Shown: piece after piece, positions 1 through 891 of the stretch
Position numbering within the stretch: the first letter of the stretch is position 1
Layout of the letters: every line of letters starts with the position of its first letter
Sequence record: AB841364.1
Reading direction: 5' to 3' (one strand)
Length of the DNA: 891 bases
Origin: a phage
The notes under the pieces: model-generated
What the model was told of the DNA's origin: nothing
The model's input: only the letters and a program-made list of their open reading frames with translations
The model's database searches: none
Position numbers and translations under genes: made by a program

Positions 1-368
1 AGCTTGAAGGAAATACTAAGGCAAAGGTACTGCAAGTGCTCGCAACATTCGCTTATGCGGATTATTGCCGTAGTGCCGCGACGCCGGGCGCAAGATGCAG
101 AGATTGCCACGGTACAGGTCGTGCGGTTGATATAGCCAAAACAGAGCAGTGGGGGAGAGTTGTCGAGAAAGAGTGCGGAAGATGCAAAGGCGTCGGCTAT
201 TCAAGGATGCCAGCAAGCGCAGCATATCGCGCTGTAACGATGCTAATCCCAAACCTTACTCAACCCACCTGGTCACGCACTGTTAAGCCGCTGTATGACG
301 CTCTGGTGGTGCAATGCCACAAGGAAGAGTCAATTGCAGACAACATTTTGAATGCGGTCACACGTTAG
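1..368 (+). CDS. Q: Late-gene antiterminator Q (lambda-type), C-terminal ~121 codons; 5' end truncated by window edge; stop TAG 366-368
   Basis: The + frame is open from the window edge (codons phased from nt 3) to TAG at 366-368; the GTG at 36 in the ORF track is internal, not the true start. The translation ...LEGNTKAKVLQVLATFAYADYCRSAATPGARCRDCHGTGRAVDIAKTEQWGRVVEKECGRCKGVGYSRMPASAAYRAVTMLIPNLTQPTWSRTVKPLYDALVVQCHKEESIADNILNAVTR matches, from memory, the C-terminal part of phage lambda Q. It includes a CxxC-x22-CxxC zinc-binding motif (Cys codons 96-98, 105-107, 174-176, 183-185). A pR'/qut-type promoter immediately downstream is the expected context. Exact identity to lambda Q is not verified. 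Confidence 0.92.
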   Translation, partial: LEGNTKAKVLQVLATFAYADYCRSAATPGARCRDCHGTGRAVDIAKTEQWGRVVEKECGRCKGVGYSRMPASAAYRAVTMLIPNLTQPTWSRTVKPLYDALVVQCHKEESIADNILNAVTR

Positions 369-410
369 CAGCATGATTGCCACGGATGGCAACATATTAA
401 CGGCATGATA

Positions 411-439
411 TTGACTTATTGAATAAAGTTGGGTAAATT
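411..439 (+). promoter_or_regulatory. Late promoter pR'-type sigma70 promoter: -35 TTGACT (411-416), 17-bp spacer, -10 TAAATT (434-439); predicted start ~446-447. The spacer is where Q-binding elements lie in lambda.
   Basis: Near-consensus -35 and a -10-like hexamer at optimal 17-bp spacing, 43 bp downstream of the Q stop codon. The arrangement TTGACTTATTGAATAAAGTTGGGTAAATTTGACTCAACGATGG matches the lambda pR'/qut region as I recall it, with a possible single-base difference in the spacer that I cannot verify. Confidence 0.8.
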
Positions 440-445
440 TGACTC

Positions 446-462
446 AACGATGGATAAATGCA
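446..462 (+). promoter_or_regulatory. Promoter-proximal sigma70-dependent pause element (-10-like AACGAT at 446-451) with expected pause position about +16/+17 (461-462); downstream half of the qut site
   Basis: AACGAT sits immediately at the predicted transcription start, as in lambda pR', where sigma70 re-binds this -10-like non-template sequence and pauses RNA polymerase for Q loading (established for lambda). It is followed by a second -10-like stretch, TGGATAAAT (451-459). Confidence 0.6.
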
Positions 463-472
463 CTCGTTAAAT

Positions 473-503
473 AAAGCCCTGAGTTAATAGCTCGGGGCTT
501 TTT
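473..503 (+). terminator. Intrinsic (rho-independent) terminator, tR'-like: A-tract 473-475, stem 476-483 / 491-498 (GCCCUGAG / CUCGGGGC, 8 bp with one G-U), 7-nt loop, U-tract 499-503
   Basis: GC-rich hairpin directly followed by TTTTT, with a complementary AAA upstream. It lies about +30 to +58 from the pR' start, the expected place for the terminator that Q-modified polymerase must read through. Confidence 0.75.
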
Positions 504-568
504 GCGTTTGCACAACAGGTAAGAGCATTCTCCCTTATGGGGCTTGGCTTAAATGCACCGAGTGCTCT

Positions 569-597
569 TATCGTTGTGGCAGCACAACGATAGTTTT
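569..597 (+). terminator. Candidate second intrinsic terminator or operator-like palindrome: perfect 10-bp inverted repeat TATCGTTGTG (569-578) / CACAACGATA (583-592), 4-nt loop GCAG, then G + TTTT (593-597)
   Basis: The perfect inverted repeat is seen directly. The stem is only 40% GC and the T-tract is short and separated by one G, so terminator strength is uncertain. Confidence 0.35.
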
Positions 598-642
598 CGT
601 CAGANTTGGCGACTTTGCGGGTTTTTAGAAACTGACCACAAA

Positions 643-659
643 GATAAATGCAAACGATG
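643..659 (+). repeat. Distal copy of pause-region motifs: GATAAATGCA (643-652, identical to 453-462) followed by AACGATG (653-659, identical to 446-452), in swapped order relative to the promoter-proximal copy
   Basis: Exact 10-mer and 7-mer matches seen directly in the sequence. Function unknown. Confidence 0.5.
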
Positions 660-779
660 ATTTGATGTTGATGGCGGCCTAAGAAACCAAAATCACGGGG
701 TCTTCCGACTCCCCGCTACCAAATTCGGCGCACTGGCCCGGTGTGATTAATAATGGGCACCCATTCAAATGTACCCTCG

Positions 780-804
780 GCAGGTTCGATTCCTGACTAN
801 ACCC
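780..804 (+). other. tRNA-like T-arm and 3' fragment (GCAGG-TTCGATT-CCTGA, then CTANACCC); not a foldable complete tRNA
   Basis: GGTTCGATTCC (783-793) is a canonical T-stem/T-loop motif (G53 T54 T55 C56 R57 A58 .. C61), and GCAGGTTCGATTCCTG resembles the T-arm of E. coli tRNA-Arg genes as I recall them. No acceptor, D or anticodon arms could be built from the upstream 50 nt. The region contains an N and lies in the low-quality tail of the read. Confidence 0.25.
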
Positions 805-891
805 AGATGGCGACGGGGAGGGTCCAATTGAGTGGGTAACAACGGGCATGTCGCCNTANTAAATCCCTCAAGGGTGCGACGCATANACCNG

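Follow-up and report, generated by a model that had tools for sequence, protein, structure and literature searches.

What follows the late promoter of a lambdoid phage when the antiterminator gene, promoter and pause element are almost exactly those of lambda, and the leader behind them is far shorter than the lambda 6S RNA? The question is raised by sequence record AB841364.1, an 891-nt stretch of phage DNA that we analysed whole and call the window (coordinates are those of the window, + strand, unless another sequence is named). A sequence-only reading had singled out positions 446–529, proposing that a lambda-type Q, pR′ and qut were joined near +8, right at the edge of qut, to a non-lambda leader, and that likeness to lambda returned only with a 20-mer at 510. 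Our analysis leads us, with very little doubt, to regard 446–529 as the leader of the late operon in an E. coli lambdoid prophage, of the short type known from P22, HK97, HK022 and HK620.

The upstream part of the window is very close to lambda. Positions 1–468 aligned without gaps to lambda 44142–44609, with 454 of the 468 positions identical (97%, E = 0), bearing out the lambda-type Q, pR′ and AACGAT element that had been recognized by eye. The window opens within the Q gene, of which the 3′ two-thirds are present (3–368; 121 codons plus a TAG stop at 366–368); this fragment is 97% identical to lambda Q as DNA, matches the Pfam family Antiterm (PF03589, E = 9.5e–37), and corresponds to a gene annotated ‘antitermination protein’ in all matching records. 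The late promoter pR′ (411–439) consists of the –35 hexamer TTGACT (411–416), a 17-bp spacer and the –10 hexamer TAAATT (434–439), and was the sole sigma-70-type promoter that a promoter scan found in the window. Lambda Q binds between the two hexamers. The spacer with its lambda Q-binding region (TATTGAATAAAGTTGGGTAAA) shows a single change relative to lambda, A to G at 428 (–18); the Q-binding region agrees at 20 of 21 positions with the string that phage annotations quote for lambda qut, and phage records annotate the spacer string as promoter plus lambda qut site. The transcription start and pause-inducing element occupy 446–451, where +1 is 446 and the –10-like AACGAT of qut spans +1 to +6; these six bases are identical to lambda 44587–44592, lambda +1 being 44587, and the P22 annotation labels the base equivalent to 446 ‘P late RNA 5′ nt’. 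The initial transcribed region (446–468) is homologous to lambda from +1 to +23, with substitutions at +9, +11, +15 and +17, and is identical in P22, HK97 and HK620; positions 461–462 are the counterpart of the lambda +16/+17 pause site. Together with the terminator described next, all parts of a lambda-type Q-dependent late antitermination module are thus present: a Q-family gene, a promoter with a Q-binding element, a pause element and a terminator.

Homology to lambda ends at 468/469 (+23/+24) rather than near 453 (+8), for 454–468 are still identical at 11 of 15 positions and the final CTCGTT is common to both phages. Beyond 468 the leader differs from that of lambda. A short segment of 23 nt (469–491), which supplies the A-tract, ascending arm and loop of a short terminator, stands in place of the 158-nt body of the lambda 6S RNA (lambda 44610–44767), and that body was absent both from the window and from the matching prophage of E. 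coli strain YP3 (see below). The net shortening of the leader relative to lambda is 135 nt (158 vs. 23), close to the 140 nt or so estimated from the sequence. The lambda alignment is back at 492, earlier than the 510 first proposed, with the descending arm of the terminator and its T-run (TCGGGGCTTTTT vs. TCGGGATTTTTT); over 492–529, 32 of 38 positions are identical (E = 2e–7). With E-values of 0 for 1–468 and 2e–7 for 492–529, neither match to lambda is due to chance. The 20-mer GCACAACAGGTAAGAGCATT lies at +65 here (510–529) and at +200 in lambda (44786–44805), exactly where the earlier reading had placed it.

The terminator itself, tR′ of the P22/HK97 type (473–503), is intrinsic, with a 13-bp stem-loop at 473–501 (AAAGCCCTGAGTT-AAT-AGCTCGGGGCTTT) whose 3′ arm runs into a T-run at 499–503, as found by a terminator scan. 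The terminated leader RNA is predicted to be about 58 nt long, compared with 194 nt for the lambda 6S RNA. The 65-nt leader (446–510) folded at –23.3 kcal/mol (z = –4.3), and the terminator hairpin alone at –19.1 kcal/mol, between lambda tR′ (–23.5) and that of P22 (–16.4).

Whether this leader variant was already known from another phage, a question that the sequence-only reading had left to database comparison, has a plain answer, in that it is the standard form of P22, HK97, HK022 and HK620. HK97, HK620, HK022 and the mEp phages carry exactly this leader, and P22 has one that is 95% identical; taken from 453 to 509, the identity is 100% to HK97, the mEp phages and HK544, and again 95% to P22. 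Hardly any differences from HK97, Emek, HK620 and P22 are seen between the –35 hexamer and the GCGTTT ending at 509. In the window +1 to +23 are joined directly to the AAAGCCCTGAG...CTCGGGGCTTTTT terminator, which identifies the short leader of the P22/HK97 type, and the leader body by which a lambda 6S RNA is recognized (lambda 44610–44767) is missing. In the P22 RefSeq record the counterparts bear the labels ‘P late or P R′’, ‘similar to phage lambda qut’ and ‘P late RNA 5′ nt’, and the terminator, which starts 30 nt past +1, is called ‘t late or t R′; antiterminated by gene 23 protein action’; the Emek record likewise annotates a qut site and a rho-independent terminator. Among phage records, 91 contain the 57-nt short-leader segment and 36 the 158-nt body of the lambda leader (these being chiefly lambda and laboratory derivatives, with a few relatives); among 5,426 complete E. 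coli genomes the figures are 335 and 421, so the short leader is about as common as the lambda form in E. coli genomes, and the lambda body is the rarer of the two in phage records. The late promoters of 21, phi80, 82 and P22 have been described as yielding short RNAs regulated by antitermination (PMC7547250). Annotation of P22, distribution and literature thus agree in making the short leader a known and common variant. Rfam searches of the leader and downstream region, which covered the window and its counterparts in lambda, HK620, Emek, YP3 and CS01, returned no family at gathering score.

The closest known system is the late region of P22 (gene 23, P late or pR′, a qut-like site and t late or tR′; NC_002371, 37852–37945), which has the same architecture. 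From the –35 hexamer to the end of the terminator only one spacer base and a few terminator-loop bases differ, the terminator follows +1 at about 30 nt in either case, and the protein is of the same Q type, lambda Q and P22 gp23 being interchangeable (PMC8022706). The two part after GCGTTT (509), where P22 continues with TAAGCACG... towards gene 13, whereas the window enters a lambda-type hairpin followed by extra RNA cassettes; their hosts also differ, Salmonella for P22 and E. coli for the window. The Q/pR′/qut/6S/tR′ region of lambda (43886–44780) shares with the window the hexamers, the Q-binding region (20 of 21), +1, AACGAT, the stretch from +1 to +23 and, immediately 3′ of the terminator, the 20-mer hairpin arm. 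It differs in its 194-nt leader, whose 158-nt body overlaps the hypothetical orf-64 and whose terminator hairpin is larger and branched; the window has a leader of about 58 nt, a simple 13-bp hairpin and the four substitutions between +9 and +17.

A difference of this kind in a single record could have arisen at the bench. The window starts with AGCTT, its first base corresponding to lambda 44142, directly 3′ of the lambda HindIII site at 44141, and its undetermined bases (N at 605, 800, 856, 859, 886 and 890) are confined to the 3′ part, a pattern that fits a single-pass read from the end of a HindIII clone. This appearance, and the lambda-hybrid vectors named in the sequence-only reading, speak for a laboratory construct (a lambda hybrid or vector, such as a QSR substitution or an engineered deletion) instead of a natural variant, and the Ns, typical of a low-quality 3′ end, speak for a sequencing or cloning deletion in the read. 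Natural genomes answer both. A prophage of YP3, a natural E. coli isolate from the canine uterus, differs from window positions 1–889 at five positions, all of them Ns, so that every called base is identical; there the region has an antitermination protein gene on one side and a lambda-family holin gene on the other. In 116 complete E. coli genomes a single place covers at least 80% of the window, the listed ones spanning 1–889, and partial matches occurred in 1,451 of 5,426. Wild phages from Hong Kong, Mexico, Canada and elsewhere carry the same leader. The collinear window in natural genomes rules out a lambda laboratory hybrid or vector, and we give the construct explanation practically no credence. 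An artefact of the read is just as hard to believe, as the leader region contains no Ns and exact copies of it exist in hundreds of independent genomes and assemblies.

How a natural short form arose is a different matter. An unrelated, independently evolved terminator module could have been swapped in at the qut edge by illegitimate recombination; 469–491 has no convincing lambda alignment, and non-homologous exchange of modules is frequent in lambdoid phages. We consider this origin improbable. Homology extends to +23, beyond the qut elements, the descending arm and T-run of the terminator align with lambda tR′, and the Salmonella phage SI8 (MK972688) couples a lambda-like leader body with a GCCCTG...CGGGGCTTTTTGC(A/G)TTT terminator. 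The SI8 leader starts AACGATGGGTTA, continues with a body of about 130 nt that is 85% identical to lambda, and ends GCCCTGGCAGAAATGTCGGGGCTTTTTGCATTT. It thus shares with the window the AACGATGG start and the P22-type terminator (GCCCTG...CGGGGCTTTTTGCATTT); it differs in keeping the lambda-like body and in sitting behind another type of antiterminator and promoter. As SI8 carries both, that terminator and the long body do coexist in one lineage. Three forms can therefore be laid side by side: long body with lambda tR′ (lambda), long body with P22-type tR′ (SI8), and no body with P22-type tR′ (P22, HK97 and the window). Because SI8 has a long body ahead of a P22-type terminator, the most economical history suggested is that a long-leader ancestor lost its body from +24 up to the terminator, SI8 being the one intermediate; the direction, deletion in the short form as opposed to insertion in the long form, would likewise depend on that single phage. 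Of the original proposal, then, the much shorter terminated leader behind a lambda-type Q, pR′ and qut stands, and its description as an unrelated non-lambda replacement most probably does not, given the terminator homology with SI8 and the alignment of the descending arm with lambda tR′. The region is indeed mosaic, with a junction that falls at +23/+24, slightly 3′ of where lambda pauses (+16/+17), rather than at the qut edge.

We also observed a second mosaic junction, at 509/510, of which the sequence-only reading had made no mention. Up to 509 (GCGTTT) the window resembles P22, HK97 and Emek, and from 510 it resembles lambda and lambda-like prophages; after 509, P22, HK97 and Emek all go on with TAAGCACG..., and HK620 diverges already past the T-run. 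In four IMG/VR contigs (L076, L090, L102 and L104) the block that follows 510 instead stands behind a complete lambda long leader and lambda tR′. Since this block is found behind either leader type, short and long leaders behave as interchangeable modules. The arrangement reflects lambdoid mosaicism, combining a deletion-type difference at +23/+24 with a recombination junction at 509/510, where a P22-type leader meets a lambda-type hairpin.

By analogy with lambda and P22, the module would work as follows. RNA polymerase would initiate at pR′ with 446 as +1; as in lambda, sigma-70 (region 2) would rebind AACGAT at +1 to +6 and the polymerase would pause at about +16. Left without Q, it would terminate at tR′ (473–503) and release an RNA of about 58 nt. 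Q made from the gene just upstream would bind between the hexamers and load onto the paused polymerase, and the Q-modified polymerase would run through tR′ and every terminator beyond it, reaching the genes for lysis and morphogenesis. Pausing, Q loading, readthrough and the efficiency of termination are all inferred here from those two phages. The substitutions between +9 and +17 remove the lambda pause-site G at +17, so that the exact position of the pause may differ; those at +15 and +17 shift the pyrimidine-G step from +16/+17 (CG in lambda) to +14/+15 (TG), and it might be speculated that the pause sits two bases earlier than in lambda. The known requirements of Q all lie upstream of the +23/+24 breakpoint, which makes the leader body dispensable: Q needs only the stretch from –35 to about +23 plus any intrinsic terminator, and the 194-nt 6S RNA body can be done without. 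In itself the short leader is a re-identified P22/HK97 form, an instance of textbook lambdoid mosaicism and of small importance.

The 20-mer shared with lambda proved to be one arm of a larger element, a conserved long imperfect hairpin at 510–578, with the 5′ arm at 510–529, a variable spacer at 530–560 and the 3′ arm at 561–578 (AGTGCTCTTATCGTTGTG). It folded at –35.1 kcal/mol (z = –4.5); the equivalent hairpin of lambda, just past tR′, had a z of –4.4 with a different spacer, and a second copy in the YP3 prophage (locus L004, 4926–5014), with yet another spacer, had a z of –5.7. In 100 distinct arm pairs from other loci, arms paired with their own partners at 83.7%, compared with 81.2 ± 0.6% when partners were shuffled (a value reached in 0 of 1000 shuffles), and compensatory changes were seen in the arms, including a matched variant in CS01 (GGAAAGGGCATT...AGTGCCCTATCC). 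Within phage leaders and tRNA arrays the hairpin recurs as a boundary element that separates RNA cassettes. RNase III processing sites in lambda late RNA were reportedly described by Daniels et al. in 1988 (cited in PMC7547250), and the hairpin may be such a site.

Past this hairpin, some 90 bases downstream of the late-gene switch of promoter, pause site and terminator, lies an RNA of about 175 nt (592–763) that we describe as a tmRNA-like core without a tRNA-like domain. The first signal came from sub-threshold matches of Rfam tmRNA models over a tag-like reading frame; the best scores were 27.4 bits for RF04321 (gathering 47), 21.9 for RF01849 (50) and 16.2 for RF01850 (84). In the window the frame occupies 650–682 and reads GCA AAC GAT GAT TTG ATG TTG ATG GCG GCC TAA (ANDDLMLMAA and stop), in a core whose resume context is AUAAAU. 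It had 10 codons and TAA in all 125 copies, always as GCA AAC, eight further codons and TAA apart from one outlier (L037) with the synonymous GCT AAT; the 17 tag peptides fit the pattern A-N-[DES]-[DEN]-x-x-[LM]-x-[AV]-A, with a few exceptions present in single copy. A stop after codon 10 was kept in 33 of 33 unique versions in this frame only, and the synonymous share of codon differences was 21.5% in the tag frame vs. 3.8% and 12.3% in the other two. A small ORF starting from the AUG inside AAAUGCAAAC was rejected, its stop varying among codons 4, 5, 6 and 8 and its synonymous fraction being 3.8%.

The structural elements are placed around this frame much as they are in tmRNA. Upstream is a PK1-like pseudoknot (593–597/628–632 with 613–620/636–643), which is invariant among the copies and plausible as a structure. 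The stop codon lies in the loop of a helix (669–671/693–695), and downstream follow two H-type pseudoknots, one formed by 696–700/711–715 with 705–708/725–728 and the other by 729–733/741–745 with 736–739/755–758. The stop-loop helix and the two downstream pseudoknots were assessed on an alignment (A2) of 35 non-redundant copies of the core. The proposed structure was 97.0% paired there, vs. 40–48% when partners were slid by one to three columns; 11 pairs had changed on both sides, amounting to 88 cells vs. 2–7 in the slid controls, and the covariation score was reached by none of 500 shuffles. All three elements are accordingly supported by covariation. The window also holds the 5′ part of a second conserved noncoding module (832–891), cut by the end of the window; the module is about 95 nt long, is complete in the YP3 prophage (locus L004, 4832–4925), is conserved with Skatevirus-type phages and contains covarying hairpins, and it stands beside the core in 12 of 125 copies only.

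The likeness to tmRNA (ssrA) comprises a GCA resume codon after an A/U-rich single strand, a 10-codon AND...AA tag frame, a stop placed in the loop of a hairpin, one pseudoknot upstream of the frame with others, of the H type, downstream, and the weak Rfam matches to permuted, alpha and beta tmRNA models. Unlike tmRNA, the core has no tRNA-like domain: no acceptor stem with G3-U70, no T-arm and no 3′ CCA. It is also only about 175 nt long with two downstream pseudoknots, it begins in some phages about 5 nt before the first pseudoknot, all its Rfam scores are below gathering, and its primary similarity to E. coli ssrA is not significant. ARAGORN found neither tRNA nor tmRNA genes in the leader of the YP3 prophage (locus L004); it likewise saw no tmRNA in a set of 36 loci or anywhere in the CS01 genome, which has no tRNA at all. 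In Skatevirus-type phages a near-consensus promoter (TTGACA-17-TAGATT) ends 7–10 nt before GUUUUCG, placing the start of the RNA about 5 nt before the core, and this leaves no room for an acceptor strand.

Several ways of completing or otherwise naming the core were tried and set aside. A recent copy of host ssrA was rejected, local alignment with the window type being no better than with shuffled sequence. The T-loop-like GGTTCGATTCC (about 783–795), considered as part of a tRNA-like domain, is not conserved in the Skatevirus homolog. A long P2-like closing helix made from hairpin arms flanking the core fails as a general feature because changes of the 3′ flank go uncompensated on the 5′ side in several phages, because CS01 lacks the 3′ arm, and because Skatevirus lacks the 5′ arm. 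The second conserved module is no better as the missing acceptor piece, accompanying only 12 of 125 cores, and no acceptor piece was found elsewhere in the complete CS01 genome. Permuted (two-piece) tmRNA, in which a closing helix upstream of the coding piece encloses T-arm, acceptor strands and intervening segment, is a case apart from these. The closing helix of its model RF04321 aligns to hairpins of the 510–578 type; their interior, the place of a tRNA-like domain, is missing or variable, being 31–90 nt long and unconserved and containing tRNA fragments only sometimes, and hairpins of this type are absent where the core has its own promoter.

The core is conserved at 75–91% across unrelated phages, among them Drexlerviridae, Skatevirus, P1/P7, HK620, and Klebsiella and Erwinia phages, and is almost never annotated in their records. 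Its invariant motif was found in at least 120 IMG/VR contigs, and the core itself in 670 of the 5,426 E. coli genomes, mostly on P1-like phage-plasmids (568 places, the plasmids being about 90–100 kb in size); among species-representative genomes it occurred only in a few Enterobacterales and in one MAG labelled Bacillota. About half of the core loci are co-oriented with a phage tRNA array and lie just upstream of it. In a 2014 survey of tmRNA genes, the only phage tmRNAs listed are those of mycobacteriophages, Bacillus phage G and DS6A (PMC4131195), and the literature that we searched yielded no description of these tag peptides or of a phage tmRNA-like element of the 592–763 type, so this RNA is apparently undescribed so far.

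Taking the parts together, we offer a joint reading tentatively, doubting it slightly more than we believe it. The 20-mer at 510–529 would be an arm of a recurrent hairpin that bounds exchangeable RNA cassettes within late leaders and tRNA arrays, and 592–763 would belong to a new class of phage RNA that has kept the pseudoknots and a decoded-looking 10-codon degradation-tag frame and is rid of the tRNA-like domain; its synthesis would come late, through readthrough from pR′ past tR′ or, in virulent phages, from its own promoter, and would act on host trans-translation. As to what it does there, our guess, held with low confidence, is that it interferes with or reprograms host trans-translation late in infection. 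Lambda-immP22 hybrid phages are reported to depend on host ssrA, a dependence that a link of the core to ribosome rescue would fit. If the joint reading is true, the core could act towards SmpB or the ribosome as a competitor or decoy, or it could serve, in combination with an acceptor part from the host, as an alternative tag template. It would then represent a new route by which phages interact with ribosome rescue, one widespread in unrelated virulent and temperate phages of enterobacteria.

The RNA encoded at window 592-763 (4592-4763 of L004, the YP3 prophage locus) has the architecture of tmRNA minus the tRNA-like domain. This conserved core of ~175 nt opens with an upstream pseudoknot followed by a GCA resume codon; its tag frame (650-682) comprises 10 codons, ANDDLMLMAA*, with the stop codon lying within a hairpin loop, and two H-type pseudoknots covary. 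The core is carried by hundreds of unrelated enterobacterial phages and is found in 670 of 5,426 E. coli genomes; it almost always goes without annotation in the records, it reached no Rfam gathering score, and no description of it was found in the literature searched. Its invariant motif also occurs at L135 76-99, on a 5.9-kb contig (JAFAFU010000017) from a metagenome-assembled genome labelled Bacillota; because the remaining genomic matches to this motif all fall in Enterobacterales, L135 is probably a mis-binned phage contig. In a Salmonella Skatevirus phage (L007, 1464-1492) a near-consensus promoter, TTGACA-17-TAGATT, lies immediately 5′ of the core, as it does at the homologous loci L044, L059, L063, L069, L074, L105, L106, L112 and L125, which makes the core of these virulent phages a transcription unit in its own right.

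A second conserved noncoding module, of ~95 nt, begins at window 832 and is cut by the window end (832-891), its complete form being at L004 4832-4925. Its sequence reads GTGGGTAACAACGGGCATGTCGCC...GCTCC-ACGAAAC-GGAGC, and its middle and 3′ hairpins show covariation when E. coli prophages are compared with Skatevirus-type phages. Core and module 2 occur together in 12 of the 125 copies compared.

A third form of late leader is present in Salmonella phage SI8 (L129, 670-880), where a lambda-like body (85% identical) ends in a P22-type terminator, whereas the Q type and the promoter are different; this leader is useful as a form standing midway from the lambda type to the P22 type. The HK620 record places the label 'qut; putative Q-utilization site' on the terminator hairpin (L003 1961-2003, or AF335538 15610-15652), and its 'late transcription terminator tQ' ~600 nt downstream of that hairpin. 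Judged by homology with P22, the segment labelled qut corresponds to the late-leader terminator tR′, so that the HK620 qut annotation looks misplaced.

Many phages have a recurring long hairpin between RNA cassettes such as tR′, module 2, tRNA genes and the tmRNA-like core; it is found at window 510-578, at lambda 44786-44863 (L001 987-1064) and at L004 4926-5014. Its arms, GCACAACAGGTAAGAGCATT paired with AGTGCTCTT(T/A)(C/T)CGTTGTG, enclose a spacer that varies, and compensatory changes are seen in copies from many phages; in P7 a tRNA-Thr is followed at once by such a hairpin. Within the window, the end of the 3′ arm combines with a CACAAC repeat into a second, terminator-like hairpin at 568-593 (ATCGTTGTG-GCAG-CACAACGAT, then AGTTTTCGT), directly 3′ of which the core lies; this structure and the long hairpin are mutually competing. 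Some spacers of the long hairpin hold tRNA-like fragments, as in the second hairpin of the YP3 locus, beyond the window (L004 4946-4996), and at L031 and L061. One such fragment has a T-arm-like GTAGAGTTCGACTCTCTAC and then a 7-bp stem with UUUU closing, and the T-arm at L031, GGGTTCGAATCCC, is perfect. These fragments may have been left behind by tRNA cassettes or by a tRNA-like domain of the permuted kind. The long hairpin itself may be a site of RNase III processing, or a place where cassettes recombine especially often.
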